Source of the DNA: an uncultured delta proteobacterium
GTDB taxonomy: Bacteria; Myxococcota_A; Polyangia; Haliangiales; Haliangiaceae
DNA: 64,000 nucleotides
Reading direction: 5' to 3'
Assembly (NCBI GenBank): GCA_963848295.1
Contig: CAWKDB010000010.1
Span: 3,296,001-3,360,000, forward strand
Numbering within the stretch: the first letter of the stretch is position 1; every line of letters begins with the position of its first letter. Shown one piece after another: positions 8,909 to 51,816 of the stretch. The notes beneath the pieces are model-generated. The model made no database searches. It saw nothing but the letters and a program-made list of their open reading frames with translations, and was not told where the DNA came from. The position numbers and the translations under genes were made by a program.

Positions 8909-9811
8909 CTACAGGACGAGCGTTCCCTGCGCGAGCTCGATCACCAGGCCGGTGACGTAGATCTCGCGGTCGGCATCGACCCGCAAGCCGAGCCGCGAAG
9001 GGCGCGCGACCGCATCGCCTTGGCGCAGGGTCTCGGCGACCGGCAGCGCCCGCCCGGTCGCGACCATCCAGCCGCCGAGGTTCGCGCATGCCGAGCCGGT
9101 CGCCGGGTCCTCGATCACCGCGCCGTGCGACGTGAAGAAGAACCGCACGACGAGCTCGCCGGTCGCGTCGCGCGCCCAGACGTACGCCATCGCCTCTTCG
9201 CGCGTGTCCGACAGGCCTAGCCGCGCGATCAGCTCCGGCACCGGCCGCACCGCGCGCACCGCCTCGACGGTCGCGAGCGGAATCACGAGTTGCTCGGCGC
9301 CGGTGTTGACCCACAGCGGCTCACCCGCGATCTCGGTCGCGGCGATTCCGAGCATGTGCGCGAGCTCGGCGCGGCTGCCCGCCGGTGGTCGCGTCGTCGC
9401 TGGCCGCGCCGCGCGCAGCGTCCACGTGTCGCCGTTCGCGGTCACCGGCACGATGCCGGCAATCATCTCGAATGTCACGCGGTCGCCGCCGCGCAGCGCG
9501 CGCACCACGTGAGCCGTGCCGAGCGTCGGATGACCTGCGAACGGCATCTCGAAGCCGGGAGTGAAGATCCGGACGCGCGCGTCGGCTCGACCACTCGATT
9601 GAACCGCACCGCCATTCGGCGGCGCTGCCGGCGAGCTGCAAGTCCCCGCCGTCGGGGGCAGCACGAACGTCGTCTCCGACAAGTTCATCTGGCGGGCGAG
9701 CCCCTGCATCTGCGCGTCGGTCAGGCCCCGCGCGTCCTCGAACACGCACAGTGGATTACCCGACAGCCTGTCGCCCTCGATCGCGAACACGTTGACGATG
9801 CGAAACCGCAT
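8909..9811 (-). CDS. PhzF-family epimerase/isomerase carrying a 19-codon insertion
   Basis: GNPLCV, NLSETTF, RIFTP, EMPFAGHPTLG, EDPATGSA. Confidence 0.92.
   Translation of the reverse strand: MRFRIVNVFAIEGDRLSGNPLCVFEDARGLTDAQMQGLARQMNLSETTFVLPPTAGTCSSPAAPPNGGAVQSSGRADARVRIFTPGFEMPFAGHPTLGTAHVVRALRGGDRVTFEMIAGIVPVTANGDTWTLRAARPATTRPPAGSRAELAHMLGIAATEIAGEPLWVNTGAEQLVIPLATVEAVRAVRPVPELIARLGLSDTREEAMAYVWARDATGELVVRFFFTSHGAVIEDPATGSACANLGGWMVATGRALPVAETLRQGDAVARPSRLGLRVDADREIYVTGLVIELAQGTLVL
9594..9650 (+). repeat. 57-bp double-hairpin element, antisense and in-frame within the PhzF-family gene
   Basis: 45/57 identical to the tandem unit at 34333; followed by GTCG. Confidence 0.85.
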
Positions 9812-9895
9812 GCCCTCGTGTAGCGACCCCAGCGCATCCCCACAAGGAGCAGCGCATGGTCTCGACGACCGGTACACGCGGCCGATGCACCGGGA

Positions 9896-10510
9896 ATGCT
9901 CCGTTGGCTCGTGCTCGCGACCGCCCTGACGGGATGCCATCCGTTCGTCGCCGCCGGGTACGACATGTCGACCCGCGTCGGCGGACCGCTGTCGAGCGTC
10001 GTCGCGGCGCCGGCGACGCCGGCCGCGCGCTCGACCACCGCGCCGACCGCGCCGTTGCCGCCGGCCTCGGGCTCGACCTATTCGCTCGCGGTCGGCGGCG
10101 GCGCCAAGAACTTCTCGGTCGAGGCCGGGTTGCAGGCCCAGAACGTGAGCAGCGCGAGCTTCTCGCTGCCGTCGATCAATGGTGTCGAGCAAGGCACGAT
10201 CGTCGATCCGGGGACGCCGCACTACATCACCGCGACGAGCGACTTGTTGGTGAGGTACACGCCGCTGCGGTTCAAGTACTTCTCGACGAACGTCTACGCC
10301 GGGCCCGGCGGCGCGCTCGTGTTCGATCGGACCTCGGGGAATCGCTCGTGGGGTGAAGAGGTGCGGTTCGGCGTCGGGATCTCGACGAACCTGAAATGGT
10401 TCGCGGCGTTCGCGGATGTGTCGCGCACGGTCGTCGTGTTCGCGGACGGCCCGGCGACCGGCACGAGCACGATCGACGGCATCATGGTCGGGCTCGCTCT
10501 GCACAACTGA
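9896..10510 (+). CDS. Hypothetical lipoprotein, beta-rich
   Basis: Lipobox LTGC, coding-like composition. Confidence 0.7.
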   Translation: MLRWLVLATALTGCHPFVAAGYDMSTRVGGPLSSVVAAPATPAARSTTAPTAPLPPASGSTYSLAVGGGAKNFSVEAGLQAQNVSSASFSLPSINGVEQGTIVDPGTPHYITATSDLLVRYTPLRFKYFSTNVYAGPGGALVFDRTSGNRSWGEEVRFGVGISTNLKWFAAFADVSRTVVVFADGPATGTSTIDGIMVGLALHN

Positions 10511-10533
10511 GCGAGTCGAGCTATCATCGGGAG

Positions 10534-11358
10534 GTGCCGGCCACCGTTGTCGATGCGGTCAAGTCGCCGATGCCGTGCGCGTGCAACTGCTACGCGGCGC
10601 TGACGCTCGACGAGCGCGTCGCCGGCATCGAGGCGCTGTATCGGTTCGACGACGCGATGCGCGGTTGGGGCCAGACCGTGATCTGGGACCTCGCGGCGCC
10701 GACGATGTGGCGAGTGCAGCAGCAGATCGGCGCGGTCAAGTGGGTCGCGGTCCGCGACACCGGGTGCTTGTACAGCCGGCTGCTCGGCTTCTGCGTCCAC
10801 GAGACGATCCACGCGAGCTGCGGCGACCCGACGCTGCCGAACTACGGCACCCCGGTCGGGCTGCCCTACGGCGTGCCCGAAGCAGTCCCGCCGAGTGAAG
10901 AGGCCGCGTATCTCCATCCGTTCAATCAGAACGAGGCGCGCGCGTGGGTCGGGCTCGGCGTCGTCGCGTATCGCCTGTTTCAGATCGAATGGACGCTGCT
11001 GCCGGCGCGCGACGTCGGCACGTACGGCTTCGTCGGCGGCAACGCGCTCGTCGATGTGCCCGACGGCTATCGCCGCGTCACCCACTTCGATTCGCAGCAT
11101 CACGCCCGCCGCTACGAAGCGCTCGCCCGCAAGCTCGAAGATGAAGCGCGCGAGTGGTTCACGCCGCAGCGGCTCGACGAGATCGCGGCGAAGTTCGAAG
11201 CGGCCGAGGCGATCGGTCGTGCGCAACGCCCGATGAAATATCCCGCGGCGCGCGAAGTCGCGCGGCTGCGTCCGAAACAGCCCGGGCGCAACGACATGTG
11301 CCTGTGCGGCTCGATGCGGAAATGGAAGCAGTGTTGCGGCGCGCTGGTCGCGGATTGA
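10534..11358 (+). CDS. HExxH protein with C-terminal SEC-C motif
   Basis: HETIH motif and C-terminal GRNDMCLCGSMRKWKQCCG. The GTG start is supported by TATCAT 6 nt upstream. Confidence 0.8.
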   Translation: MPATVVDAVKSPMPCACNCYAALTLDERVAGIEALYRFDDAMRGWGQTVIWDLAAPTMWRVQQQIGAVKWVAVRDTGCLYSRLLGFCVHETIHASCGDPTLPNYGTPVGLPYGVPEAVPPSEEAAYLHPFNQNEARAWVGLGVVAYRLFQIEWTLLPARDVGTYGFVGGNALVDVPDGYRRVTHFDSQHHARRYEALARKLEDEAREWFTPQRLDEIAAKFEAAEAIGRAQRPMKYPAAREVARLRPKQPGRNDMCLCGSMRKWKQCCGALVAD

Positions 11359-11374
11359 GGCTACTGTCCGCGCG

Positions 11375-14131
11375 ATGTCGCGCTTCGCGTTGCTCGCGCT
11401 GATCGCCTGCTCGGCACCTGCGAAGCCCGTCGTCGCGCCAGTTGCGCCGGTCGTCGTCACCGCGCCGACGCCGCCGCCGCCGCCTGCGGCGGTCACGCCG
11501 ACGCAGCCGACGGTGCGCCTGCCGCGCAACTTCGTTCCGACCGGCTACACCGCGACGCTGAAGATCGATCCCGCGATGCCGACGTTCGACGGCTCGATCG
11601 CGATCGCCGGCGAGATCTCGGAACCGTCGGCGGCGATCTGGCTGGATGCGCGCCACCTCAAGATCTCGAGCTCGTACGCTACGCGCGGCGACTCGCAGGA
11701 TCGCGTCGAGCTCGCGATCACGCAGCGCACCGACGAGCTGATCGAGATCCGCCCGGCGACGATCCTCGCGGCCGGCGCGTGGACGCTGCACTTCGACTAC
11801 GTCGGTGAGCTCGACGACGTCGACACGACCGGTGCGTTCCGCGAGGTCGCGGCCGGCGAGCGCTACGTGTTCAGCCAGTTCGAGGCGGTCTACGCGCGGC
11901 GCGTGTTCCCGTGCTTCGACGAGCCCGACAACAAGGTGCCGTGGCAGCTCACGCTCGAGGTGCCCGCGGGCGCGATCGCGGTGAGCAACACGCCGGTCGC
12001 AGCGACCACGGATCTGCCGAACGGCGGCAAGCGGTTCGAGTTCGAGCCGACCAAGCCGCTGCCGAGTTATCTCATCGCGTTCGGCGTCGGCCCGTTCGAA
12101 TTCGTCGACGCCGGCAAGACGACCTCGGGCATCGCGGTGCGGATGATCGTGCCGAAGGGCCGGGCCGCCGACGTCGCGTATCCCGCCAAGACGATCGCGC
12201 GCGTCCTCGACCTGCTCGAAGCCTGGTTCGGTACGGGCTATCCGTTCCGCAAGCTCGACTGGATGGAGATCCCGATCACCGTCGGGTTCGGCGCGATGGA
12301 GAATCAAGGGCTGGTCACTGGAGCCGAGCGCGTCACGCTCGTCGATCAGAATAGCTCGCTCGAGCGCCGCCACCGATGGATCGCGGTCTCCGCGCACGAG
12401 CTCGCGCACCAATGGTTCGGCGATCTCGTCACGCCCGCGTCGTGGGACGACATCTGGCTCAACGAGGGTTTCGCGAACTGGATGGAGGCGAAGATCACCG
12501 ATGCGTTCGAGCCGGCGTGGCACGAGCGACTCGTCGAATGGAAGATGCGCGAGCAGGCGCTCACCGCGGATCGGTTGGTGACCGCGCGCAAGATCCGCCA
12601 ACCGATCGCGACGGCCGACGACATCTTCGGCGTGTTCGACGGCATCACCTACGACAAGGGCGCGAGCGTGCTCGACATGTTCGAGCACTACGTCGGTGCC
12701 GAAACGTTCCGGCGCGGCGTGCGCGAGTACCTCCACGATCGCGCGTACGGCAACGCGACGTCGAGCGACTTCATCGCCGCGGTCAGTAAGGTCGCCGGCA
12801 AGGATCTCGCGCCTGCGTTTTCATCGTTCCTCGATCGTGCGGGGGCGCCGTTACTCGAGGTCAGCGTGTCGTGCGAGCCCGGAGGTGCCAAGCTCGTCGT
12901 TCATCAGCAGCGCTTCACGTTGCCGGGCTCCGCGCCGCCGCCCGCGCAGGGACCGTGGATCGTGCCGATCTGCGTCGCGTTCGAACGAGCCGGCGCGCGG
13001 GCCGAGGCCTGCGGCAAGATCGACGCGGACACCGGCGAGCTGCCGCTCGGCACGACCGGTTGCCCGCGCTGGGTGATGCCGAACAGCGGAGGCCGCGGTT
13101 ACTACCGGGTCGCGCTCAGCGCCGCTCAGCTCACCGCGCTGCGCGACGAAGCGTGGCCGGTGCTGAGCGAGGCCGAGAAGCTGACGCTCGCCGGCGATGC
13201 GCGCGCGCTCGTCGCGGCCGGACGCGTGCCGCTCCAGCTCGCGCTGTCGTTCGCGCCGAAGCTGCTCGCGATCGGCGATCGATTCGCCGCGCAGGAGGCG
13301 CTCGCCCTGCCGCTCGCGCTCGACCGCTTCGTTCCCGACGACCTGCGCGCGAAATACGAGAGCTGGATGCGTCAGACGTTCGGGCCGACCGCGGCCAAGC
13401 TCGGGTTCCGACCGACGGCGAAGGACGACCTCGACAGCGAGACGATCCGCAGCTCGGTCGTCGCCGCAGTGGCGTGGCAAGGCCGCGACCCCGCGCTGGT
13501 CAAGCAAGCGGTCGCGCTCGCGCAGCGTTGGCAGGACTTGCCGCAGGCCGTGCGCGAGCCGGTGCTGCGCGTCGCGGTCGACGCCGACCCCGCGCTGTTC
13601 GATCGCGTGCTGTCCGCGCTGCCGACCGAACCGGATCGCCGGACGCGCACCGACATGATCTCGGCGCTCGGTCAGGTCCGCGATGTCGCACGCCTCGACC
13701 GCGTGTTGCCGTTACTGCTCGATCACGAGCTCGACTTTCGCGAAGCGATGCAGATCCCGACGAAGCCGAAGCTCGATGCGACGATCTCCGCGGCGGGTCG
13801 GTTCGTCCGCGATCATCAGGCCGCGGTGCTCGCACGCATGCCTCGCGACGAGACCAACGCGCTCGCCGGCGGCTTCCTCGCGGTGTTCACCGCGACGTGT
13901 CGAGCCGATCAGCGCACCGAGATCGCCGACTACGTGACGTCGGCGTTCGGCAGCTTCCCCGGCGCGCACCGCGCGATCGCGCAGGCGATCGAGGGGATGG
14001 ATCAGTGCATCGCGTCGCGCGCGACCTTCGAGCCGGCGCTCCGCGCCTGGCTCGGTGGCTCGAGGCTTCCCAAGCCGAAGCAAGAATCGACACCCGGGGC
14101 CAAGAAGCCCGGGAAGCCCGCGCATCATTAG
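11375..14131 (+). CDS. M1-family aminopeptidase N-like lipoprotein
   Basis: ARRVFPCFDEP, GAMEN, HELAH...WLNEGFA, YDKG, ERAP1-like C-terminal region. Confidence 0.95.
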   Translation: MSRFALLALIACSAPAKPVVAPVAPVVVTAPTPPPPPAAVTPTQPTVRLPRNFVPTGYTATLKIDPAMPTFDGSIAIAGEISEPSAAIWLDARHLKISSSYATRGDSQDRVELAITQRTDELIEIRPATILAAGAWTLHFDYVGELDDVDTTGAFREVAAGERYVFSQFEAVYARRVFPCFDEPDNKVPWQLTLEVPAGAIAVSNTPVAATTDLPNGGKRFEFEPTKPLPSYLIAFGVGPFEFVDAGKTTSGIAVRMIVPKGRAADVAYPAKTIARVLDLLEAWFGTGYPFRKLDWMEIPITVGFGAMENQGLVTGAERVTLVDQNSSLERRHRWIAVSAHELAHQWFGDLVTPASWDDIWLNEGFANWMEAKITDAFEPAWHERLVEWKMREQALTADRLVTARKIRQPIATADDIFGVFDGITYDKGASVLDMFEHYVGAETFRRGVREYLHDRAYGNATSSDFIAAVSKVAGKDLAPAFSSFLDRAGAPLLEVSVSCEPGGAKLVVHQQRFTLPGSAPPPAQGPWIVPICVAFERAGARAEACGKIDADTGELPLGTTGCPRWVMPNSGGRGYYRVALSAAQLTALRDEAWPVLSEAEKLTLAGDARALVAAGRVPLQLALSFAPKLLAIGDRFAAQEALALPLALDRFVPDDLRAKYESWMRQTFGPTAAKLGFRPTAKDDLDSETIRSSVVAAVAWQGRDPALVKQAVALAQRWQDLPQAVREPVLRVAVDADPALFDRVLSALPTEPDRRTRTDMISALGQVRDVARLDRVLPLLLDHELDFREAMQIPTKPKLDATISAAGRFVRDHQAAVLARMPRDETNALAGGFLAVFTATCRADQRTEIADYVTSAFGSFPGAHRAIAQAIEGMDQCIASRATFEPALRAWLGGSRLPKPKQESTPGAKKPGKPAHH

Positions 14132-14180
14132 ACGAGGGTTAACGTGTAACCGGCGCGCGCGGACCCGACACGGTGAAGGT

Positions 14181-15629
14181 ATGCGACGCATTCTCCCGCT
14201 CTCGCTCGCCTCGCTGGTCGGGTTGGCCGGCTCCGCGGCGGCGCAATCCGCCGGCAGCTTCGAGCTCGACGAGTTCCGACCCGCGATGGACTCGCGCGGT
14301 TACCTCACGCTCAACGGCTCCGAGCCCCTCGACAACAAGGAGGCATCGTTCGGTCTCGGCTCGCTCGACTGGGGCCATCATCTGTTGGCGGTCGGCGATG
14401 GTGCTTACTCCGTCAACGATGTCGTGACCGCGACGTTGGTCGGCGCGGTCGGCGTGCGGCTCGCCGGCGTGCCCCTCGAATTCGGCGCCTCGCTGCCGTT
14501 GTCGATCATCAGCGGCACGACCGGATCGAGCGACGTCGGTCAGCAAGGGCTCGGCGATCTCGGCCTCCACCTGAAGACGCGGTTCATTCACGCCGGCTGG
14601 TTCGGCCTCGGCGCGATCGCGAGCGTCTACCTGCCGACGGCGTCGCCGAAGGACAGCTTTCTCGGCGACGGTTCGGTCACGCCACAAGTGCTCGCGGTCG
14701 CCGATGGAACGTTCGGCCCGCTGCGCCTCGCCCTCAACGGCGGCATCCGGATCCGCTCCGCCGACACGTTCAGCGCGATGGACACGACGACCGGCATGAT
14801 GACGACGGTCACGACCGCGACCGAGCTCCCGTTCGGCGTCGCGGCGGCGTATGCGATCTCTCCGCAGAAGGTCGATCTCATCGCCGAGCTGTACGGCTCG
14901 ATCCCGCTCGCGACCGAACAGAACTATCAGCCGCTCGAAGCGATGGGCGGCGTGAAGGTCTACCTCGCGAAGAACTCGTACCTGTCGCTCGGCGCCGGTC
15001 GCGGCTTGATTCCCGATCGCGCCGGCAACCCCGACATGCGCGCGTTCATCGGCATCGTGTTCGAACCCAAGCCGGCGGTGCAACGCCACGCGCTGATCGC
15101 GGACGACATCGAGCCGCCGCCGCCCGCGCGGCCTCCGCCGCCCGCGCCCGACACCTCCTTCCACGATCGCGATGGCGACGGCATCCAGGACAAAGATGAC
15201 AAGTGCCCCGACGAGCCCGGCTTCACGCGCGATGACGGTTGCCCCGATCGCGACCGCGTCGTCGACGTCGGTAGCGAGCTCGTGACCCTCGATCCGATCC
15301 AGTTCGAGTTCGACAAGGCGGTGATTCGCCCCGAGTCGTTCAGCATCCTCGACGCGATCGTCGCGACGATGCAGGGCAACCCGGACATCGGGTTGATCGA
15401 GGTCCAGGGCCATACCGATGCGCGCGGTAGCGCGGCGTACAACCTGGATCTCTCCGATCGCCGCGCCGCTGCCGTCGTCGTCTATCTCGTCGAGCATGGC
15501 GTGGCGCACGATCGGCTGATCTCCCACGGCTACGGTTCGACCCAGCCGGTCGACAACCGCGCGACCGAAGAGGCCTACACGAAGAACCGTCGCGTCGCGT
15601 TCGTTATCAAGATTCGCACCGCACACTGA
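14181..15629 (+). CDS. OmpA-family outer-membrane protein (barrel, TSP3-like repeats, OmpA C-terminal domain)
   Basis: DRDGDGIQDKDDKCP, GHTD, YNLDLSDRRA, NRRV. Confidence 0.9.
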   Translation: MRRILPLSLASLVGLAGSAAAQSAGSFELDEFRPAMDSRGYLTLNGSEPLDNKEASFGLGSLDWGHHLLAVGDGAYSVNDVVTATLVGAVGVRLAGVPLEFGASLPLSIISGTTGSSDVGQQGLGDLGLHLKTRFIHAGWFGLGAIASVYLPTASPKDSFLGDGSVTPQVLAVADGTFGPLRLALNGGIRIRSADTFSAMDTTTGMMTTVTTATELPFGVAAAYAISPQKVDLIAELYGSIPLATEQNYQPLEAMGGVKVYLAKNSYLSLGAGRGLIPDRAGNPDMRAFIGIVFEPKPAVQRHALIADDIEPPPPARPPPPAPDTSFHDRDGDGIQDKDDKCPDEPGFTRDDGCPDRDRVVDVGSELVTLDPIQFEFDKAVIRPESFSILDAIVATMQGNPDIGLIEVQGHTDARGSAAYNLDLSDRRAAAVVVYLVEHGVAHDRLISHGYGSTQPVDNRATEEAYTKNRRVAFVIKIRTAH

Positions 15630-15642
15630 TACGATCATCGCG

Positions 15643-16293
15643 GTGAAGCTCGCCGTGCTCGCGTTGGTCGCTGCCGCTTGTGGCGACAACTCGAGGCCGC
15701 CGATCGATGCGGTCGTGCCCGATGCGCCAGGCATGCCGGACCTGACGCTCGTCGCCGCGCAGATGGACGGCACGGTGGCGATCACCGACACCGACTTCAC
15801 CGCCGATGCGTGCGAGCTCGTCGAAGGCTGCATCGGCGATATCGGTACGCGCCGGCTGTTGCGGTTCGACACCGTGACCGCAAACCTCGGCACCGCGGAT
15901 CTCGACCTCGGCCAGGTGCCCCCGCCGGGAGTCAGCGCCGGCATCTTCGTATGGTCGCCGTGTCACATGCACCATCACGTGATGGGCTTCGCTGACTACG
16001 AGCTGTCCGATGCGACCGGCGCCGTGACGACGACCGGCCACAAGCAGGGCTTCTGCATCGAAGACGACGAGCAGATCCAGCAAGACGGACCGAGCCACGG
16101 GTTCAACTGCAACCTCCAAGGCATCACGCGGGGCTGGGCTGATTCGTACGGCAAGGGACTACCGTGTCAGTGGGTCGACATCACAGATGTAGCCCCCGGC
16201 ACCTACACACTGACCGTGACCGTCGACGCGAGTGGCATACTTCCCGACTCGAATCCCGACGACAACTCGTGGACGACGTCGGTGACCTTCTAG
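15643..16293 (+). CDS. Lysyl-oxidase-like domain lipoprotein
   Basis: RRLLRF, WSPCHMHHH, GHKQGFCIED, GWADSY...CQWVDITDV. Confidence 0.85.
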   Translation: MKLAVLALVAAACGDNSRPPIDAVVPDAPGMPDLTLVAAQMDGTVAITDTDFTADACELVEGCIGDIGTRRLLRFDTVTANLGTADLDLGQVPPPGVSAGIFVWSPCHMHHHVMGFADYELSDATGAVTTTGHKQGFCIEDDEQIQQDGPSHGFNCNLQGITRGWADSYGKGLPCQWVDITDVAPGTYTLTVTVDASGILPDSNPDDNSWTTSVTF

Positions 16294-16325
16294 CCATTCG
16301 CGGAGAAACGTGTATCGTGATTTAC

Positions 16326-17528: not shown

Positions 17529-17529
17529 G

Positions 17530-24599: not shown

Positions 24600-24840
24600 G
24601 ATGAGATCGAGATCGCGGGGGCTTCGCGCGGCTGCCTTGCGAGGGCGCCCGGACCCGCTCGGGCGACGGCGCAGACGCTGGCGGTTCCGGCGTCTCCGCG
24701 GAGCGACGCCGCTACGCGGCGATCGCGCTGGCGCGCGAGTTGGAGTGTTGACCGCGTGGCCGCGCGTCTCATCGCGCGCCTGCCCTCGCTCCCCGGGCAT
24801 CCCTCGCGGCGACGCCGCGCTCAGCGACGAGATCGCGAAC
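24600..24840 (+). repeat. Long structured repeat, copy C
   Basis: Collinear with 4410-4650. Lies just downstream of the kinase stop codon. Confidence 0.9.
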
Positions 24841-33831: not shown

Positions 33832-34284
33832 GTGCGAGCGGTCGAGATGATCGTCGCAACGATCGCCGCGACGGGTTGTGCGGCGTCGCACGTACAGGCT
33901 CCGCGGGTGCCGCGGACGCGACCGACGATCGCCGTGCTCGGGATCGAGGCGGCCGACCGAGACGCTGCGGTCGCGCGCGAGCTCACCGCGGCGTTGCGCG
34001 CCGAAGCCGCATCGCCTCGATCGCGCTATGCGTTGGCGCCACATCGCGAGCGCGAGCTGGCGGAGATGAAGGACCTCGCGAACTGCGCGAACGAGTCGGC
34101 ATCGTGTATGGCGGACATCGGCGCCGACCTCGAGGTCGACTTCATGATCTACGGTCGGCTCGACCACGGCACCGTCAAGCTCGAGCTTATGGATGTGGCC
34201 AAACGGTTCAATCGACGCGCCATCACGGTGCCGATCGCACCCGCCGGGCCGCTCTACGCGCGGCTCGGCGCCACCGTCGATTGA
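33832..34284 (+). CDS. Hypothetical lipoprotein whose stop codon lies within the first 57-bp repeat unit
   Basis: ATGC lipobox-like start; IAVLGIE; C-x5-C motif. Confidence 0.6.
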   Translation: MRAVEMIVATIAATGCAASHVQAPRVPRTRPTIAVLGIEAADRDAAVARELTAALRAEAASPRSRYALAPHRERELAEMKDLANCANESASCMADIGADLEVDFMIYGRLDHGTVKLELMDVAKRFNRRAITVPIAPAGPLYARLGATVD

Positions 34285-34482
34285 ACCGCGTCGCCATGCG
34301 GCGTCGCTGCTGGCGGCGGGCAAGCCGCCACCGTCGATCGAACCGCGCCGCCATGCGGCGTCGCTGCCGGCGGCGGGCAAGCCGCCACCGTCGATCGAAC
34401 CGCGCCGCCATGCGGCGTCGCTGCCGGCGGCGGGCAAGCCGCCACCGTCGATCGAACCGCGCCGCCATGCGGCGTCGCTGCC
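34276..34482 (+). repeat. Tandem array of the 57-bp element (~3.6 units)
   Basis: Units start at 34276, 34333, 34390 and 34447. Unit: GTCGATCGAACCGCGCCGCCATGCGGCGTCGCTGCCGGCGGCGGGCAAGCCGCCACC. Confidence 0.97.
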
Positions 34483-34537
34483 CCCGCCGTCGAGTAATCC
34501 TTTCGCGCGCTGACGCTAGCGTGCTAGGTCTGGCGCT

Positions 34538-36905: not shown

Positions 36906-36921
36906 GAATGAATGTTCATTC
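36906..36921. promoter_or_regulatory. Putative TetR operator
   Basis: Perfect inverted repeat GAATGAA-TG-TTCATTC upstream of the TetR gene. Confidence 0.7.
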
Positions 36922-36930
36922 GATAAAATA

Positions 36931-37057
36931 CGCAACGGGTCGGACCGCAACGGGTCGGACCGCAACGGGTCGGACCGCAACGGGTCGGACCGCGACGGGT
37001 CGGACCGCGACGGGTCGGACCGCGACGCGGCGGACCGCGACGGGGCGGACCGCGACG
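36931..37057 (+). repeat. 15-bp minisatellite, ~8.5 copies
   Basis: Tandem CGC(A/G)ACGGGTCGGAC units. Confidence 0.97.
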
Positions 37058-37084
37058 ACTAGAGCGCGAGCGACGGCGGAGCGA

Positions 37085-38402: not shown

Positions 38403-39191
38403 GTGACCATCGCGGTCCAGGGCTACGACCATCTGCTGATCACTGGCGCCGCCGGAGCGATCGGTAGTGCGCTCGCCCGCGCGATGCACGCAGCATGGCC
38501 GCGCTGCGAGCTCGCGCTGATCGATCGCGATGGCGACGCACTGGCGGCTCTCGCGCGAGAGCTCGGCGGGCGAGCGAGCGTTCACGCTGGGGATCTACGC
38601 GACCTCGACGCGCTGCCAGCGATCGTCGCCGCGATCGAGCAGACGGCGCCGGTCGACGGACTCATCAACTGCGCCGGCGTCATGAAGGTGCAACACGTCT
38701 CGACGTGGCGGTGGAGCGACGCTCGCGACCTGATGACGATCGACCTGCTTGCTCCGCTGCGGCTGCAGGATCTCGTCGTGCGCGGCATGATCGAGCGCCG
38801 TCGGGGCGTGATCGTCAACGTCGCCAGCATGGCGGGGCGAGTGCCACTACGCGGCGCCGCGTACTACGGCGCATCGAAGGCGGGGCTCGCGATGGCCTCC
38901 GAGATCGCGCGTGCGGATCTCGCGCCGCACGGCGTGCGCGTCGTCACGGTGTATCCTGGGCCGGTCAAGTCAGCGCTGGAAGCGGGCGCGCGCGCGGCCT
39001 GGGGCGGCGGCGGCATCTTGGGACGCCTCGCCCGCAGCGGTGAACCGGACGAGCTCGCGCGCCGGATCATGAGGGCGATCGCAGTCGATGCGCCGCGCGT
39101 GATCTATCCGCGGCTCTATCGCGCAGGATGGGCCGCCACGAACCTCGCGAGCTGGTTTGCGCTGTCGTACGGCCCGCCGCCGATCGCTTGA
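38403..39191 (+). CDS. Short-chain dehydrogenase/reductase
   Basis: TGAAGAIG, NCAG, YGASK. Confidence 0.9.
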   Translation: MTIAVQGYDHLLITGAAGAIGSALARAMHAAWPRCELALIDRDGDALAALARELGGRASVHAGDLRDLDALPAIVAAIEQTAPVDGLINCAGVMKVQHVSTWRWSDARDLMTIDLLAPLRLQDLVVRGMIERRRGVIVNVASMAGRVPLRGAAYYGASKAGLAMASEIARADLAPHGVRVVTVYPGPVKSALEAGARAAWGGGGILGRLARSGEPDELARRIMRAIAVDAPRVIYPRLYRAGWAATNLASWFALSYGPPPIA

Positions 39192-39565
39192 TCGCGCGCG
39201 CCGGTGGCTGCCGCGGGCTCGCAGCGATCCCGATCGCGCGCGCCGGTGGCTGCCGCGGGCTCGCAGCGATCCCGATCGCGCGCGCCGGTGGCTGCCGCGG
39301 GCTCGCAGCGATCCCGATCGCGCGCGCCGGTGGCCGCCGCGGGCTCGCAGCGATCTCGATCGCGCGCATTGCCGGCGCGATCGCTGATCACGGGCTGCGG
39401 CGGCCCTTCGCGATCTCGGCGCGGTCGCTGATCACGGGCTGCGGTGGCCTCCGCGATCTCGGCGCGATCGCTGATCACGCGCTGCGGTGAGCTCCGCGAT
39501 CTCGGCGCGATCGCTGATCACGCGCTGCGGAGGCTTCCGGCGTCTCGACGCGATCGCTGATCGTA
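39190..39565 (+). repeat. Tandem array of 42-44-bp units in two related subtypes
   Basis: Four 42-bp units from 39190, then about four 43-44-bp units from 39376. Confidence 0.93.
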
Positions 39566-39763
39566 CGCGCCGTCGACCGCCGCGGTGTCGGAGCTCTCGT
39601 TGATCGAGCCGGACTCGAGCGCGACGGCATGCGAGCCTCCCGGGAGCGAGTCTCGAGATCGGCTTGACCGCGCAGGTGCTTGATTGCTTGACGTGGCCGG
39701 CGGACATCAGCGCACATCGGGCCTGTCTTGCCCGAGATCCGCTTGATATCCTCGGGCCTTCGC

Positions 39764-41187: not shown

Positions 41188-42033
41188 TCACGCGCTCGCG
41201 GTCTTCCAGTCCTTCTTCGAGAACGTGTCGAAGTCGATGACGAGCGCGATCGCCTTGTCGTCGGCATCGACCGCCCAATACGCCGTGTACTCGCCGTTGC
41301 CGGGGGCGAGCGCGAGCGCGCGCCGGCCATCGATCAGCGGGATCTCGGTCGGCTCGAGCCCGGCGACGGCCGGGACCGCGAGCACGCCGGTCGCTGCGCC
41401 GGTGTCGACGGTGCGGGCTCGCCCCGCGCCGGCAGCACCGCCGGACGGCGGTGCGGTTGGATCGACGAGCGCGATCCAACCACTCGTCACCGGAACGCGG
41501 GGCAGATCATCGGGCGACCTCGGCGGCTTCTGACCTCTGTAGTGCGCGACCGTCCAGCGCGCGATCGGCGGCCGGCCGACGTGCACGACGACGGCAGCGA
41601 GGCGCTGCTTCGCACCGTCGATCGAGCCCCGACCATCGGTCGCGATCGACGTCATCGCGCGAAACATGCCGGTGCCGACCGGGCGATCGAACACGCGCCA
41701 ACTCTTCGGCACGGCGGGGTCGCCGATCGCGATCGCGCCCGAGCTGACCGGCAGCGCGGTCGTGAGCCATTTCACATCGATCTTGTAAGCGCCGAACTTT
41801 TCGCCGTAGCGGAGCAGGCGGGCGACATCGCGCGGTGCCGCGAGCTCGTCGCGTTGCGCGGGGGGCGGCGGTGGTGCGGGCGGCGCCGGCGTCGTGACCC
41901 GAGTCGACTTCGGCTTTGCGACGCGCTTGGCCGCCGGCGTCGTGGCCCGAATCGACTTCGGCTTTGCGACGCGCTTGGCCGCCGGCTCTTTCGCCGCCGC
42001 CTTCGGTCTCGACTTGGCCTTCGTCTTCGCCAC
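41188..42033 (-). CDS. DUF4241-like protein with Lys/Ala-rich N-terminus and a 19-aa insertion
   Basis: SSGAIAIGDP and GNGEY.AYW..D...ALVIDF; PAAKRVAKPKS duplication. Confidence 0.65.
   Translation of the reverse strand: MAKTKAKSRPKAAAKEPAAKRVAKPKSIRATTPAAKRVAKPKSTRVTTPAPPAPPPPPAQRDELAAPRDVARLLRYGEKFGAYKIDVKWLTTALPVSSGAIAIGDPAVPKSWRVFDRPVGTGMFRAMTSIATDGRGSIDGAKQRLAAVVVHVGRPPIARWTVAHYRGQKPPRSPDDLPRVPVTSGWIALVDPTAPPSGGAAGAGRARTVDTGAATGVLAVPAVAGLEPTEIPLIDGRRALALAPGNGEYTAYWAVDADDKAIALVIDFDTFSKKDWKTASA
41410..41466 (-). repeat. 57-bp double-hairpin element, in-frame
   Basis: 46/57 identical to the tandem unit. Begins with GTCGA and is followed by GTCGA. Confidence 0.9.
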
Positions 42034-43820: not shown

Positions 43821-43994
43821 AGATTTGCTGACCGCATCGTTGTTCAACGGGTATGCGATCACCCACCGCGGTAACAAAATACCCGGGGTGCTATCCCAGT
43901 GCTAACCATGCGAATCTAAGCTTGATTCAGTCATGTCCGCGCGATCATTCGATCGCCCTTACAAGTGGATCAAGCGCCAATCAAATCCGGAGAG

Positions 43995-44010
43995 TGGCCC
44001 AGCGCTCGCA
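43995..44010 (+). promoter_or_regulatory. sigma54 -24/-12 promoter
   Basis: TGGCCCAGCGCTCGCA (GG-N10-GC). Confidence 0.5.
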
Positions 44011-44022
44011 CTATCACTCCGC

Positions 44023-45042
<1,020 letters not shown>

Positions 45043-45045
45043 ACG

Positions 45046-46476
<1,431 letters not shown>

Positions 46477-46496
46477 GTTTCCTCGGGGGAGGCGAG

Positions 46497-47657
46497 CTAG
46501 CTGCGTCCGGGCAGCCTCACGTGGAACGTGGGGCCTTCAGGCTGCGACTTGTACTCGATGGACCCGCCGTGAGCTTCGCACGCGAGGCGGCAGAAGTACA
46601 AGCCGATGCCGCGCTTGCCATTCTTGCCCTTGGCGTACTTCGCAAACAGGTTGTTCTCCAGGTCCGGCGGCACGAGGGGACCGGTGTTGTGGACGACGAT
46701 CTCGACGCTCTCGGGGTCGTGGTCGTGGAGCGGGCGCGCCGACAGCCGGATCTCGCCGTTCGCGTTGCAGTAGCGCGCGGCGTTGCCGACCAGGTTGTGC
46801 AGGACGCGCTCGATCAGGGCGACGTCGAGGTGGCCGTTGAGCTTCTGGTCGCAGTCGACGTTGCACTTGATGTTGCGGCCCATCGCCGCCGCGTGGACGT
46901 CGATCACCTCGAGCAGCAGCGCGCGTACGGGCGCCGTGGTGCACGCAGGTTTGACGCTGGCGTCCTCGAACCGCGCGATGTCGACGAAGTTCGCGACCAA
47001 GCCGCTCATCCGGCGCAACGCGTTGAGCGTCGAGGTCAGCGCCTGGCCCTCATCGGCTTCGAGCGTGATCGAGCCGCTGATGTACGTGAGGTTCGACAGC
47101 GCGACCGCGAGGCCGTTGTTGAGGTCGTGGGCGAGCATCGCGGCGGCTTCGGCGCCGTACGCGAGCAAGCGGTCCGCGCGCTCGCGAGCGAGGCGGGATT
47201 CGATGTAGGCCTGCTGCGTACGCGCAGCGGCGATCATCCGGCGGCGCAGCTCGGCGATCACCGCCGGCTTCGTCATCACATCGTCGGCGCCGGCATCGAA
47301 GCAGGTCGCGCGGAAGTCTTCATCGTCTTGCCCGCTGAGCACCGACACCCACACCGCCGAGCCGTGAAGCTCCTTGAGCCGGCGCACGACCTCGAGACCG
47401 CTCGTCGGCATGTCGAAGTCGACGAGCGCGAGATCCGGCGGCGTGGTCTCGGCGAGCGCGATCGCGGGCTTGCCGTCCTCGGCGGTCATCACGTGGAAGC
47501 CGACCCGAGACAGGGCATTCGCGATCGCGCGGCGGACGCGAGGGTCATCGTCGACGACAAGGATGCGAACCCCGGCCAGCTGAGGCAGCGGGTGGGCCCC
47601 CGACATCGATGTGGTCGGTTCGGGGTGATCCAACAAGCTCGCGATCGCGTTCGACAC
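46497..47657 (-). CDS. Hybrid receiver-histidine kinase
   Basis: ILVVDDD receiver; AHDLNN H-box; NLVGNA; GIGLYFC. Confidence 0.88.
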   Translation of the reverse strand: MSNAIASLLDHPEPTTSMSGAHPLPQLAGVRILVVDDDPRVRRAIANALSRVGFHVMTAEDGKPAIALAETTPPDLALVDFDMPTSGLEVVRRLKELHGSAVWVSVLSGQDDEDFRATCFDAGADDVMTKPAVIAELRRRMIAAARTQQAYIESRLARERADRLLAYGAEAAAMLAHDLNNGLAVALSNLTYISGSITLEADEGQALTSTLNALRRMSGLVANFVDIARFEDASVKPACTTAPVRALLLEVIDVHAAAMGRNIKCNVDCDQKLNGHLDVALIERVLHNLVGNAARYCNANGEIRLSARPLHDHDPESVEIVVHNTGPLVPPDLENNLFAKYAKGKNGKRGIGLYFCRLACEAHGGSIEYKSQPEGPTFHVRLPGRS

Positions 47658-47669
47658 GCCAAGGGGCTT

Positions 47670-47685
47670 TGCGAGCGACGTGCCA
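47670..47685 (-). promoter_or_regulatory. sigma54 -24/-12 promoter
   Basis: TGGCACGTCGCTCGCA on the minus strand. Confidence 0.65.
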
Positions 47686-47787
47686 GTAACGGTCGGTGCG
47701 CTGACGAGAGTTAGCCGCGATGAGAGCCGCGTTACGTCAAACTCGCCGACACTTTACGGCATCGGGGTCCGGCCGAATCTCTCGGTG

Positions 47788-49071
47788 ATGCCGAGTAGCG
47801 TCGCCCAAGCCCTCTCGTCGTTGGCACCTTCGCCGCCGGTCGCAGTGGTCGATACGTTGCTCGACGCCGCGATCGGGTCCGACGCCGACTTCGTGTGGAT
47901 CGAGCCCGTCCCGATGGCCGAAGAGCTCTATCTGATCTCGATCGAGAGCCAGGGTCAGGTGATCGCGACCGCTTCGATCGACGCGCTGCTCGCGCTGTCG
48001 GTGATCGCTCGGTTGGCGTTCATCTCCGGAGTCGACCTCACCGCGCCGACGGTCGTCACCGGTACCGCGCGGGTCAAGGGCCGCGGGCGCGAGTGCGACG
48101 TCGTTTGCACGTTGCGGCCCGGCACCGAGGTGCGCGCCGAGGTGATGTTCGTCAAACGCGGACCGCGACTCGTCGCGGGCGAACGGCACGAGCTCGGCGA
48201 CGGAGATCGTGTCGGTCACTATCGAATCATCGAACGACTCGGAGCAGGTGGCATGGGCAGCGTGTACAAGGTCGAGCACGTCACGCTCGGTCGGCTCTAC
48301 GCGCTCAAGGTCTTGCACCGCACCGTGCTAGAGCGCGATCCCCAGAGCGTCGATCGGTTCCTGCGCGAAGCGAGGGCGGCGTCGCGCATCCAGCATTCGC
48401 ACATCGTCGACGTGTTCGACTTCGGGTTCGTGGCCGACGGTCGGCCGTACTTCGTGATGGAGATGCTACCGGGCATCAGCCTCGCCGACCTGATCGACGA
48501 CGCGGCGCTCGAACCGGCGCGCGCACTCGAGATCGCGCGCCAGCTCGGCGAGGCGCTCGCGGCGGCTCACGAGCACGGCGTGATCCATGCCGACGTCACG
48601 CCGTCGAACGTGCTGGTCACCGAGCTCGACGACAAGACGATCGTCAAGCTCGTCGACTTCGGCCTCGCCGAGCTGCGCGAACCGAACGTCGTGCCCGAGG
48701 AGCCGGTCGCGAGCGACTTCGTGCTCGGTACGCCGTGCTACGTGTCGCCCGAACAACTGCGCGGCATGCCCGTGACCGAGCGCTCCGATCAATACGCGCT
48801 CGGCGTCGTGCTGTACGAGATGATCGTCGGCGCACCGCCGTTCACCGACACGAATCTGCGCGCGCTGTGCATGAAGCACATCAACGATGCGGTGCCCGAC
48901 GTCCACAGCAAGTTCGGCCCGGTGCCGGCGGAGCTGTCGAAGTTCATCCAGCGCTGCATGGCGAAGTCGCCGTCGGCGCGTTATCCGAGCACGCGCGCGA
49001 TGCTCGGCGATCTCGACATCGTCACCAAGCTCGTCGAACGCCGTGGCTGGCGTCGTTGGCTGACCACGTGA
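47788..49071 (+). CDS. Cytoplasmic Ser/Thr kinase with N-terminal GspE/PilB-like domain
   Basis: GAGGMGSV, ALK, HADVTPSN, DFG, GTPCYVSPE. The N-terminal domain call is tentative. Confidence 0.85.
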   Translation: MPSSVAQALSSLAPSPPVAVVDTLLDAAIGSDADFVWIEPVPMAEELYLISIESQGQVIATASIDALLALSVIARLAFISGVDLTAPTVVTGTARVKGRGRECDVVCTLRPGTEVRAEVMFVKRGPRLVAGERHELGDGDRVGHYRIIERLGAGGMGSVYKVEHVTLGRLYALKVLHRTVLERDPQSVDRFLREARAASRIQHSHIVDVFDFGFVADGRPYFVMEMLPGISLADLIDDAALEPARALEIARQLGEALAAAHEHGVIHADVTPSNVLVTELDDKTIVKLVDFGLAELREPNVVPEEPVASDFVLGTPCYVSPEQLRGMPVTERSDQYALGVVLYEMIVGAPPFTDTNLRALCMKHINDAVPDVHSKFGPVPAELSKFIQRCMAKSPSARYPSTRAMLGDLDIVTKLVERRGWRRWLTT

Positions 49072-49080
49072 GGCTAGTCC

Positions 49081-49674
49081 ATGCCCGATGACCATCCCGC
49101 CACGCCACGTCCCGTCGTCGTCTGCGTCGATGACGATCCCGAGATGCTTGCCGCGTTGCTGCGCACGCTGCGCAAGATGCCGATCGAGTTGATCTCGACC
49201 TCCGAGCCCGCACAAGCGCTCGCGTGGGTCGGTGAACGCGACATCGCGGTCCTCGTGTCGGACTACGAGATGCCCATGATGAACGGCGCCGAGCTTGCCG
49301 CGGCGGCGCGCCGCGCGCGTCCCGAAACGGTGCGCGTGCTGATGACCGGCCGGCAGACGCTCGACACCGCGGTCGATGGCATCAACCAGGGCGAGGTGTT
49401 TCGTTACGTCCAGAAGCCGTTCGATCCGAAGCGGATGGTTCAGGTCGTGACCGAGGCGGTCGCGCGCCACCAGGAGCTCGTGTCGGTGTCGAGCGAGCGC
49501 GATCGCGCGGTGCGCCGCGACCGGATCGTCGCCGAGCTCGAGTCCGAGCATCCGCACATGACGAGCGTCGCGCGCGAGTCCGACGGCACCTACATCGTGC
49601 CCGTCACGCCGCACTCCGCGGTCGCCGGGTTGGGCCTCGACGCGATCATCGCGCTCGCGGGGCGCGTCCGATGA
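49081..49674 (+). CDS. Response regulator receiver protein
   Basis: CVDDD, SDYEMP, MTG, KPF. Confidence 0.88.
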   Translation: MPDDHPATPRPVVVCVDDDPEMLAALLRTLRKMPIELISTSEPAQALAWVGERDIAVLVSDYEMPMMNGAELAAAARRARPETVRVLMTGRQTLDTAVDGINQGEVFRYVQKPFDPKRMVQVVTEAVARHQELVSVSSERDRAVRRDRIVAELESEHPHMTSVARESDGTYIVPVTPHSAVAGLGLDAIIALAGRVR

Positions 49675-49746
49675 CGACGCTGGCGGAATTGACGGCGAGC
49701 GGTGGCGCTCGCGTCGCTAACCGCGCGGCACCCCAGCGATCGCGTG

Positions 49747-49762
49747 CGGCATGGTCGTTGCT
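49747..49762 (+). promoter_or_regulatory. sigma54 -24/-12 promoter of the fliL-pse operon
   Basis: CGGCATGGTCGTTGCT (GG-N10-GC). Confidence 0.6.
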
Positions 49763-49779
49763 GTTGGAGTCCACTACCT

Positions 49780-50265
49780 ATGTCTGACGAGCCCGCCGTC
49801 AAACCGCCCGAACTGGCGAAGAGCAAGACCTCCAAAGTCGTGCTCGCGTTGCTCGTGCTCAACCTCGGCGCCAGCGGCTTCGGTGTGTTCAAGCTGCTCA
49901 CCGCGACCCCGGCCGAGGCCGCGACCGTCGCGAAAGAGCCGCCACCTCCGACCAACGAGGTGACCGGCCCGGTGATGAGCTTCGATCCGTTCGTGGTCAA
50001 CCTCGACGAGCCCGGCACGTCTCGCTACTTGAAGGTCACGCTCCAGGTCGAGCTCGAGTCGCCCGACGCGGCGGAGGCAGTCGAGAAGAGCAAGCAGCTC
50101 ATTCGCGACACGATCCTCAGCCACCTCTCGGGCCTGCACGTCAAAGACACGCTCGGCGCGGAAGCGAAGGACAAGATCCGCAGCGAGCTGATGACCCGCG
50201 TCGAGAAGGTCCTCGGCAAGAACAAGATCAAGCGGATGTTCTTCCAAGAATTCGTCGTCCAGTAG
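49780..50265 (+). CDS. fliL: Flagellar basal-body protein FliL
   Basis: A TM segment, FVVNL, RYLK, IRD, C-terminal FQEFVVQ. Confidence 0.9.
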   Translation: MSDEPAVKPPELAKSKTSKVVLALLVLNLGASGFGVFKLLTATPAEAATVAKEPPPPTNEVTGPVMSFDPFVVNLDEPGTSRYLKVTLQVELESPDAAEAVEKSKQLIRDTILSHLSGLHVKDTLGAEAKDKIRSELMTRVEKVLGKNKIKRMFFQEFVVQ

Positions 50266-50275
50266 CGAGCAAACC

Positions 50276-51319
50276 ATGGCGAAGCCCATCACCATCGGAC
50301 GTCCCGTCGGTCCCGGCGAACCGCCGTTCATCGTCGCGGAGCTGTCCGCGAATCACCTAGGGAGTCTCGAGCGAGCCCTCGCGATCGTCGATGCGGCGGC
50401 CGATGCCGGGTGCGACGCGATGAAGCTCCAGACGTTCACTCCATCGGCCATGACGCTCGAGATGGACAAAGGTGATTTTCATATCGCCGACGGTCCGTGG
50501 CAGGGCCGGTCGCTGTGGGATCTCTACGACGAGGCGCACACGCCGTGGGAGTGGCACGCGCCGCTGTTCGCACGCGCCGCCGCGCGCGGCATGATGTGCT
50601 TCTCGACGCCGTTCGACGAGCAAGCGGTCGAGCAACTCGATCGGCTCGGCGCGCCGGCGTTCAAGGTCGCGTCGTTCGAGCTCGTCGATCTCGAGTTGAT
50701 CGCCGCGTGCGCGAGGACCGGCAAGCCGTTGATCATGTCGACCGGGATGGCCTCCGATGAAGAGATCGGCGAGGCGATCGAGACCGCGCGCTCGGCGGGC
50801 GCCGGTGGCATCGCGCTCCTGCACTGCGTGAGCGGCTATCCGACGCCGCCGGAGCAGACCAACTTGCGCCGGCTCGACGCGCTCGCGCAGCTCGGTACCG
50901 TCGTCGGCATCTCCGATCACTCGCCCGGCTCGACCGTGCCGATCGCCGCGGTCGCTCGCGGTGCCACGATCGTCGAGAAGCACCTGACGCTCGCGCGCGC
51001 CGACGGCGGCCCGGATGCGGGGTTTTCGCTCGAGCCGGCCGAGATGGCCGAGGTCGTACGGGGCTGCAAGATGGCGTGGGCCGCGCTCGGCGATGGCTCG
51101 TCCGTCCGGCCGAAGGCCGAAGCGGGCTCGCGCAAGTTTCGTCGTTCGCTCTATGCCACCGCCGACATCGCGCCCGGCGAGGCGTTCGGTCGCGACAACA
51201 TTCGCTCGATCCGCCCTGGCCTCGGCTTGCCGCCGCGTGACTTGCCGCGCGTGATCGGTCGCGCCGCGAGGGTGGCGATCGCGAAGGGCACGCCGCTCGC
51301 GTGGGAGCTGATCGCGTGA
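50276..51319 (+). CDS. pseI: Pseudaminic acid synthase
   Basis: AELSANH, KLQT, AHTPWEWH, KVASFE, HCVSGYP, EKH, SAF domain. Confidence 0.92.
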   Translation: MAKPITIGRPVGPGEPPFIVAELSANHLGSLERALAIVDAAADAGCDAMKLQTFTPSAMTLEMDKGDFHIADGPWQGRSLWDLYDEAHTPWEWHAPLFARAAARGMMCFSTPFDEQAVEQLDRLGAPAFKVASFELVDLELIAACARTGKPLIMSTGMASDEEIGEAIETARSAGAGGIALLHCVSGYPTPPEQTNLRRLDALAQLGTVVGISDHSPGSTVPIAAVARGATIVEKHLTLARADGGPDAGFSLEPAEMAEVVRGCKMAWAALGDGSSVRPKAEAGSRKFRRSLYATADIAPGEAFGRDNIRSIRPGLGLPPRDLPRVIGRAARVAIAKGTPLAWELIA

Positions 51320-51816
51320 CCGTGGCGCTGCGCAAAGCTCGCCCGCTCGACTGCCGGCGCGTGTGGGAATGGAGCTGCTCGCCGGACGCGCGCGCTAGCT
51401 CGCTCGATCCGCGGCCGATTCCGATCGCCGAGCACGAGCAGTGGTTTCGCGAGCGCGTCGCGCGTGACGGCATGTGGATCGTCGAAGCGAACCTCGCCGA
51501 CGTCGGCGTCGTGCGGATCGATCCAACCGCGCTGCCATTCGACCGGATCTCGATCGCGATCACCTCGGCGGCGCGCGGTCGCGGCATCGGTCGTCGCGCG
51601 GTCGCCGCCGCGTGCGAAGCGTGGCAACGCCCGGTGTTCGCCGAGGTCCTGCCCGACAACGCGGCGAGCCGAGCCTGTTTCGAAGCGTGCGGGTTCGTCG
51701 TGCGCGACACCGGCCCCAGAGTCGATCCCACCGCACTGCCATTCGGCAGCGCTGCCGGCCGCGGGCAAGCCGCGACCGTCGTCACTTACGCGTGGAGCCC
51801 AGCATGCAAGCCATGA
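51316..51816 (+). CDS. pseH: GNAT acetyltransferase, PseH-like, with 57-bp insertion
   Basis: EHEQWF, GVVRID, RGRGIG, DNAASRACFEACGF; located in the pse cluster. Confidence 0.7.
   Translation: MTVALRKARPLDCRRVWEWSCSPDARASSLDPRPIPIAEHEQWFRERVARDGMWIVEANLADVGVVRIDPTALPFDRISIAITSAARGRGIGRRAVAAACEAWQRPVFAEVLPDNAASRACFEACGFVVRDTGPRVDPTALPFGSAAGRGQAATVVTYAWSPACKP
51517..51541 (+). repeat. Truncated copy of the 57-bp element
   Basis: ATCGATCCAACCGCGCTGCCATTCG matches the first 25 nt of the element. Confidence 0.65.
51721..51777 (+). repeat. 57-bp double-hairpin element, in-frame in pseH
   Basis: 48/57 identical to the tandem unit; GTCG at the start and immediately after. Confidence 0.92.

Follow-up and report, generated by a model that had tools for sequence, protein, structure and literature searches.

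A 64-kb stretch of contig CAWKDB010000010.1 from an uncultured delta proteobacterium (GenBank assembly GCA_963848295.1, positions 3,296,001 to 3,360,000), hereafter the window, contains the same 57-nt double-hairpin element at four loci. Full units start at window positions 9594, 34276, 41466 (minus strand) and 51721, and a 25-nt remnant of the left half is located at 51517; these places had been reported in an earlier note made from the letters of the window, and a sequence search confirmed them. Three single copies are located in genes coding for a PhzF/PhzC-family protein, a DUF4241 protein and a GNAT acetyltransferase, the last of which also contains the remnant and is named PseH by inference from its gene context. 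The host frames are open and carry the insert peptides that the earlier note had quoted, and it is from these open frames that translation of the inserts is inferred. The fourth locus is a tandem array (Table 1). The single copies had been said to match the array unit at 45-48 of 57 positions, which holds for array units 2 and 3 (45, 46 and 48 positions), whereas unit 1 matches them at only 44, 43 and 45. Since position 58 pairs with position 36 and travels with the element, the unit is best delimited as positions 2-58. The array falls essentially outside coding sequence, since the stop codon of the open reading frame (ORF) 33934-34284 is provided by the first of its units. At the array site the sister genome G061 has two 44-nt units; a second family was considered for these and rejected, as no other copies were found, and they are read as decayed units.

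Table 1. Copies of the 57-nt element and their host loci in the window
Feature	Position	Strand	Remarks
Element copy (model positions 2-58) in PhzF-family gene, antisense to host	9595..9651	+	TCG(G) target after it at 9652-9655
PhzF/PhzC-family host gene, 300 aa	8909..9811	-	Pfam PF02567; PDB 1t6k alignment
Short ORF, no Pfam family, stop codon inside array unit 1	33934..34284	+	
Tandem array, three full 57-nt units	34277..34447	+	Unit 1 provides TGA stop (34282-34284) of upstream ORF
Fourth array unit, 42 nt, internally deleted, plus terminal TCGA core	34448..34493	+	
Element copy in DUF4241 gene, sense, in frame	41409..41465	-	Target TCGA at 41408-41405
DUF4241 host gene	41188..42033	-	Pfam PF14025
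Left-half remnant, 25 nt, in PseH-like gene	51517..51541	+	Region length equal to sister's
Element copy near C-terminus of PseH-like acetyltransferase, sense, in frame	51722..51778	+	TCGT target after it
PseH-like GNAT acetyltransferase host gene	51316..51816	+	Pfam PF13302; downstream of NeuB/SAF gene (PF03102)

The mobility of the element is evident from a comparison with G061. Among 88 element loci taken from that genome, which represent part of its copies, 34 have as their counterpart in the present genome an empty site that differs by exactly 57 bp, and 13 an inexact empty site. In 20 cases both genomes carry the element, and 21 loci have no orthologue call; the 34 exact presence/absence sites between the sisters thus show that the element is mobile. 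Empty orthologous sites, as sought in the earlier note, are also found for the single copies in the window. The element is absent from all 25 PhzF orthologues examined, in which the loop that contains it (43 residues here) comprises 18-31 residues, mostly 25 or 23, and the PhzF gene is 54 nt longer than its insert-free counterpart in G061. The inserts in the DUF4241 and PseH genes are common to G061 and are absent from seven and eight other orthologues, respectively, that were readable by motif search (18 loci in either case). The 19-codon insertion originally proposed is matched by PseH (+19), but the net gain against orthologues ranges from 18 to 20 aa (DUF4241 +18). No 57-bp skip was observed among the joints listed for four DNA sequencing runs (contigs).

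The 34 empty sites have the consensus N-T-C-G-A (T in 29, C in 25, G in 30 and A in 22), and the base following the TCG targets in this genome is A in 60 of 88 cases, as against 23.6 expected. The target amounts to about 4-5 bases of information with little further preference, TCGA is not over-represented in the genome (observed/expected 0.99) and HIP1-like targeting was rejected on word counts. The GTCG(A) found on both sides of the copies had been interpreted as a target duplication. The left and right cores of 111 solo copies are, however, uncorrelated (positions 2 and 59 are identical in 69, with 65.9 expected), and a target duplication is therefore not supported; the repeated GTCG is a shared core. 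Position 1 of the empty sites matches the left copy in eight cases and the right copy in three, while positions 2-4 match the right copy ten times and the left copy once (13 informative cases). The simplest reading is that the element consists of positions 2-58 and is inserted at N/TCG(A), with the slash marking the insertion point. Seen from the bottom strand, this would mean that an element with TCGA at its own end is inserted on the 3' side of a TCGA-like tetranucleotide.

Two stems are predicted for the unit, pairing positions 13-20 with 25-32 (stem 1) and 36-44 with 50-58 (stem 2), and both covary strongly. Mutual information among the 111 solo copies is highest for the pairs 41/53, 40/54, 44/50, 36/58, 38/56, 17/28, 15/30, 42/52 and 16/29, and the compensatory changes noted earlier at 17/28, 40/54, 41/53 and 42/52 are present in the window and hold genome-wide. 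Among 46 copies from several genomes, 11 of the 16 pairs change on both sides. The covariation was also expected to be significant in a larger alignment, and cells changed on both sides number 103 as against 34 in shuffles, none of 500 shuffles reaching the observed value, a test which is inflated by the relatedness of the copies but with which the slid-register control (covariation score 0.359, as against at most 0.148 in slid registers) and the repeated swaps agree. Between species, stem 2 differs in sequence and length, while the left module (positions 2-34) is conserved. The better-folding strand is the bottom one in 96 of 122 distinct copies when folded as DNA and in 85 when folded as RNA; individually, top strands fold no better than shuffles, whereas bottom strands reach z scores of -2.3 to -2.8 in three of four. 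The bottom-strand loop of stem 1 reads G-N-A-N and that of stem 2 reads C-YY-GC in 74 of the 122 copies (CTTGC in 27). A hammerhead ribozyme was rejected by eye, and no Rfam family matched: the window gave no hits, and the best score obtained was 16 bits (threshold 45).

A profile search of the 7.8-Mb genome returned 168 matches at an E value of 0.01, rising to 202 at 1, with none in the reversed genome. An ungapped matrix search returned 146 copies, 29 of them in arrays, and none in the control; at a stricter matrix score the copies merge into 120 loci. The high genome-wide copy number suspected from the window alone is thus borne out. All 20 close spacings are of 57 bp, head to tail, and there is no opposite-strand pair within 400 bp. 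As no two dispersed copies are identical, the nearest differing at 2-15 positions, the sequences do not point to a burst in the very recent past. An exact pattern matched 61 stretches in species genomes, with titles mostly of Kofleriaceae or Deltaproteobacteria and flanks about 90% identical to this genome, and at least 123 stretches in metagenomes; phage contigs yielded no match to the pattern. Two of the stretches are in a bin titled Acidobacteriota. The copies L046 and L064 in this bin have flanks 70-85% identical to the present genome, and the bin is possibly mislabelled or mixed.

With two mismatches allowed, 28 of the 138 genomes of the family matched, all of them from one genus and five of them with 32-122 matches, using a pattern that is tuned to this genome and undercounts diverged subfamilies. 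About 130 element matches are present in G061. In a single-gene tree of 31 genomes, with weak deep support, genomes with many copies are scattered among those with low or zero counts, a distribution that suggests several blooms within the genus. Tandem periods in other genomes are 57 (18 cases), 54 (five) and 56 (two), and genome G082 has 51-nt units as well as one 50-nt array.

Genes were called with the element masked, giving 6,227 genes and 84.6% coding sequence. Called genes contain 100 of the 120 loci (about 83%), and 81 of the 120 are at least 15 codons from both gene ends, with 72% expected (p 0.22); in a non-circular check, based on gene calls made in the absence of the insert, 27 of the 34 empty sites fall within a gene (p 0.35). 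Copies are hence not detectably depleted from coding DNA, and genes contain insertions at the frequency expected by chance. An insert is carried by about 96 of the called genes of this genome, and the 20 host genes scanned against Pfam include kinases, SNF2, UvrD and RecG helicases and penicillin-binding proteins, among others. The usage of the six reading frames (54, 21, 15, 7, 2 and 1) largely follows the position of TCG in codons, but the sense frame is over-represented (p 0.02 overall; 54 sense in-frame copies against 21 antisense copies of the same target phase, p 0.002). The insert peptides consist of 56-63% Gly, Ala, Pro and Ser in all four common frames, a predicted example being VDPTAPPSGGAAGAGRART. 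The absence of stops in host frames (0/97) is a circular measure and was not used as evidence. Length variants are multiples of three in seven of eight coding copies and in one of seven non-coding ones (Fisher p 0.01), and frame is hence preserved in coding copies, as the earlier note had suspected. The element would add a loop of about 19 aa without breaking the reading frame.

In the PhzF-family protein the insert corresponds to approximately residues 53-71, in a loop between two strands. The structure model has a mean predicted local distance difference test (pLDDT) score of 91.8, with values below 50 at residues 57-62 and 65-68, and the insert is modelled, with low confidence, as a loop that links strands 47-51 and 78-84 of an intact predicted fold; a single-sequence fold with a pLDDT of 36 was not used. 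The remnant region in the PseH-like gene codes for IDPTALPFDRI, as compared with IDPRDDGAGRI in the sister, host codons being replaced one for one, which is consistent with an insertion followed by a compensating deletion. Another left-half remnant (L072:1499-1532) is found in frame in a G061 gene resembling an alanyl-tRNA editing protein, as named by eye.

The mechanism favoured here, with a probability of about one half, is movement by an unlinked single-strand enzyme of the HUH/Y1 type, resembling the tyrosine transposases associated with repetitive extragenic palindromes (REPs), the RAYTs, and acting in trans. The gene-less 57-bp element would be moved as folded single-stranded DNA, with the bottom strand as the active one, by an HUH transposase encoded elsewhere. 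This enzyme would cleave both the target, 3' of a TCGA-like tetranucleotide, and the element, at its own end, so that each side would retain one core and no true duplication would result. Tandem arrays may arise via re-insertion, read-through or slippage. Lineages with a length divisible by three (3n) would persist because the 85%-coding genome removes frameshifting ones, and the Gly/Ala/Pro/Ser-rich peptide would be tolerated in loops without having a function of its own. An HUH/Y1 enzyme is favoured because the folded single-strand ends, the tetranucleotide target, the lack of a true duplication and the tandem amplification match the chemistry described in the literature (PMC6006769, PMC3333891, PMC8266576, PMC13181058). 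As a rule, HUH elements target a tetranucleotide without duplicating it and have subterminal hairpins (PMC6006769, PMC3333891, PMC13181058). Also in favour of this mechanism are the exact empty sites, the preference for TCG(A), the uncorrelated cores, the covariation, the better folding of the bottom strand and its REP-like stem-2 loop, the 3n lengths of coding variants, and the presence of RAYT-like Y1 genes in this genome (nine) and in 80 of the 91 genomes of the genus.

Several observations weigh against such an enzyme. The Y1 genes are equally common in genomes without the element. The element is within 1.5 kb of none of the nine Y1 genes here, nor of any of the 26 in five relatives with incomplete genomes, and the repeats that flank Y1 genes, where seen, are unrelated to it. 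The five Y1 proteins tested score 26-36 bits, while the RAYT cut-off is 80. A GTAG/GTRG tag near the bottom-strand 5' end occurs in only 7 of 130 copies, and a by-eye test of the IS608 guide rule gave no matching guide. Copies are oriented 60 to 60 with respect to the replichores, as drawn from GC skew, and thus show no bias; insertion sequences (IS) of the IS200/IS605 type prefer the lagging-strand template (PMC3333891). Stem 1 is even as regards wobble pairs, and the asymmetry over the stems as a whole (154 A-C against 86 G-T) is for the most part due to stem 2 along with two subfamily positions. A nearest-neighbour test does not fix the cut within TCG and, in the sister set, its signal is also found at flank positions, perhaps owing to duplicate loci.

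The earlier note had proposed looking for a RAYT/TnpA(REP), IS200/605 or IS110 gene flanked by the motif, and none was found. Neither an IS110 transposase nor TnpB was found in this 85%-complete genome, and the flanks of its one IS91-type Y2 gene, which is rearranged, are unlike the element. ORFs adjoining the element at 244 loci include no Y1 match. A Pfam scan of 108 of 263 representative ORFs without a homologue in this genome, many of the 263 being probably shadow frames, gave no transposase, and no parent element with separated left and right halves around a transposase was found in this genome.

The lack of a linked transposase at any locus examined, the short core common to both ends and the absence of strand bias would also fit an alternative in which the same element is spread either by a nuclease from a different family, similar to Ssn, that recognises hairpins, or by host repair, which would take a 57-nt single-stranded circle after its excision and join it into a break via TCGA microhomology. 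Ssn nucleases are known to cut next to hairpin repeats (PMC11893778), but the five high-copy genomes each have two GIY-YIG genes, one small and conserved and one long and read as UvrC, and none of these ten loci is flanked by the element (the best match is weak and partial, E 0.13). The SRM motif fits none of 146 copies, and it is not obvious how repair by itself would preserve the covarying stems and the fixed 5' leader, making this alternative unlikely, if worth serious attention. Copying of a structured RNA by a reverse transcriptase, as in a minimal bacterial version of short interspersed elements, would account for the conserved structure and the sense excess, and three reverse-transcriptase genes over the cut-off are present in this genome. 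It is nevertheless improbable, given that selection at the peptide level can explain the sense excess, that there is no Rfam match, that the ends are precise and without tails, and that stem 1 has, on the strand that folds better, a G-N-A-(T/G) loop rather than GNRA. GNA loops are stable in DNA.

Insertion of a 57-bp circle by crossover in the TCG core, through a site-specific recombinase (IS110-type, tyrosine integrase or resolvase), would be in keeping with a core on both sides and with a tandem junction equal to the circle junction, and the genome has 15 tyrosine-recombinase matches and one resolvase. With no IS110 transposase found, a target of only about 4-5 bases and two separate hairpins that, by eye, do not fit attC, this route is decidedly improbable. 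The TCG(A) on both sides and the net gain of 57 bp would likewise be expected of a classical miniature inverted-repeat transposable element (MITE), the target of which is duplicated by a DDE transposase. The terminal inverted repeat is, however, at most 5 bp, and the left and right copies are uncorrelated, empty sites matching the right copy rather than both, so that this very improbable reading is already largely refuted. Retention of the insert for a benefit to the host, whether its hairpin is regulatory or its peptide a functional tag, would agree with the 20 of 88 loci shared with the sister and with nine scored pairs that diverged no faster than their flanks (0.09 versus 0.12). It is hardly credible in view of the four reading frames with different peptides, the predominance of lineage-specific sites, the many copies that decay by deletion and the functionally unrelated host genes.

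The element works like the Rickettsia palindromic elements (RPEs), which were reportedly described by Ogata et al. in 2000 and 2002, the cyanobacterial small dispersed repeats (SDRs), reportedly described from Nostocaceae by Elhai et al. in 2008 and including SDR5 of about 21 nt, and mitochondrial double-hairpin elements. Its in-frame insertion into unrelated, otherwise intact genes is that of the RPE-like class of coding palindromes, and it was the RPE part of the analogy drawn earlier that held, while the tests for REPs and MITEs failed. As with RPEs, it is a gene-less palindromic repeat found in frame in unrelated genes, and no mobiliser is stated for RPEs in the available parts of the sources (PMC10969869, PMC2229807). 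RPEs are long stem-loops of 105-150 bp with 44 insertions in R. conorii, about half of them in genes, in a reduced intracellular genome (PMC10969869, PMC2229807). The present element, by contrast, has 57 bp, two hairpins, about 120 loci, about 83% of them in genes, a 7.8-Mb host genome, a defined tetranucleotide target and many empty sites. SDR5 of Nostocaceae, known here through citing papers, is similarly a very small mobile repeat with precise insertion into a short palindromic target (PMC4390886, PMC5861425), but its target is HIP1 (GCGATCGC), whereas the TCGA of the element is not over-represented. The mitochondrial double-hairpin elements of chytrids and Schizosaccharomyces, compared by description only, are also GC-rich two-hairpin units that are likely mobile, but in Schizosaccharomyces they occur in 1-14 copies, in intergenic regions or rRNA genes (PMC10085805).

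Elements of the REP, REPIN and BIME types that are linked to a RAYT (TnpA-REP) resemble the family in that they expand patchily in particular lineages, form tandem arrays and, in the Pseudomonas group II REP core, have a loop like that of stem 2 (PMC3733652, PMC3116915, PMC8266576, PMC3333891). In P. fluorescens the group II REP core GCGGGCTTGCCCCGC has a loop equal to the bottom-strand stem-2 loop of the element (PMC3116915), and intragenic REPs exist in some species (PMC3733652). In contrast to REPs, the element has no GTAG or CGTC tag, no inverted doublets and no flanked RAYT and is mostly intragenic rather than extragenic, with the consensus lists of PMC3733652 lying outside the comparison; by eye, the foot of the top-strand hairpin reads AACC. 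Two hairpins, a tetranucleotide target and the absence of a true duplication are shared with non-autonomous derivatives of IS200/IS605 and IS91 (PMC6006769, PMC13181058). Insertion beside a fixed tetranucleotide without duplication is as in IS200/IS605 derivatives of the PATE type, but a parent IS with these ends, a lagging-strand bias and a matching guide are lacking, and the Y1 genes are not of the IS200 type by score. Nor does the element share oriIS/terIS ends with a Y2 transposase, as an IS91 derivative would. The terminal inverted repeats and target-site duplication of a MITE, an Ssn/SRM arrangement and a score above the Rfam threshold are equally absent. No description of the family was found in the literature on Kofleriaceae or myxobacterial repeats, most subscription papers being outside reach, and the 57-nt family, which is real and mobile and belongs to an already known kind, is itself apparently undescribed.

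The movement of coding palindromes such as RPEs and SDRs is still open, partly because few empty sites are available. The present family is notable for its neutral-rate colonisation of genes, its 3n length subfamilies and its wealth of empty sites. A defined target, 34 exact pairs of empty and filled sites, subfamilies of different 3n lengths and sister genomes whose copies number from 0 to more than 100 make up a dataset in which both the mechanism and the proposed seeding of new protein loops are directly testable. The roughly 96 insert-carrying genes, including UvrD, RecG and penicillin-binding-protein genes, represent a map of tolerated insertion sites. As the general phenomenon is known, the surprise is moderate. 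Tentatively, and with considerable doubt as to the whole, the element may combine a length selected as a multiple of three (57, 54 or 51 nt by species), colonisation of coding DNA at a neutral rate, independent blooms in several species of the genus, the rewriting of loops by insertion plus compensating deletion and an unlinked single-strand mobiliser outside the described REP, IS200/605, IS91 and Ssn systems. A 3n-selected element with an unlinked mobiliser, if true, would amount to a natural, repeated insertion-scanning experiment on the proteome and would point to a new mobiliser.

Other repeats are present in the window and the genome. A long inverted-repeat family (84-92% complementary) at window positions 4352-4552 and 5565-5766 boxes a 167-aa ORF (4848-5351) without a Pfam match, and a third, partial copy is located at 24614-24795. 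An array of 15-nt units (36916-37080) occupies a gap between two called genes, and adjacent tandem arrays of 42-nt and 43-nt units, apparently related, are found at 39148-39577. Among the RAYT-like Y1 genes of this genome (G000) is a multi-copy clade with 82-90% DNA identity (C10:261551-262312, 1438888-1439988 and 3657361-3658149; C2:329455-330669 and 1374063-1374866; and others), most copies of which have, upstream, a conserved repeat that measures about 200 bp and bears no relation to the 57-nt element. Inverted arrays built from 59-61-bp units flank the Y1 genes at L309, L300 and L295 (G011, G018), which have long C-terminal extensions. Throughout G000 there are further dispersed repeat families, such as those with GACAAAAGAGACAGCGTC and CAAAGTGAACACCGTCCC, whose copies number up to about 50. 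Beside the rearranged IS91-type gene, a 2.3-kb element (C10:55265-57600, with further copies on C1, C2 and C10) is present in about nine near-identical copies (98.6-100%) and is apparently a recently active insertion sequence.

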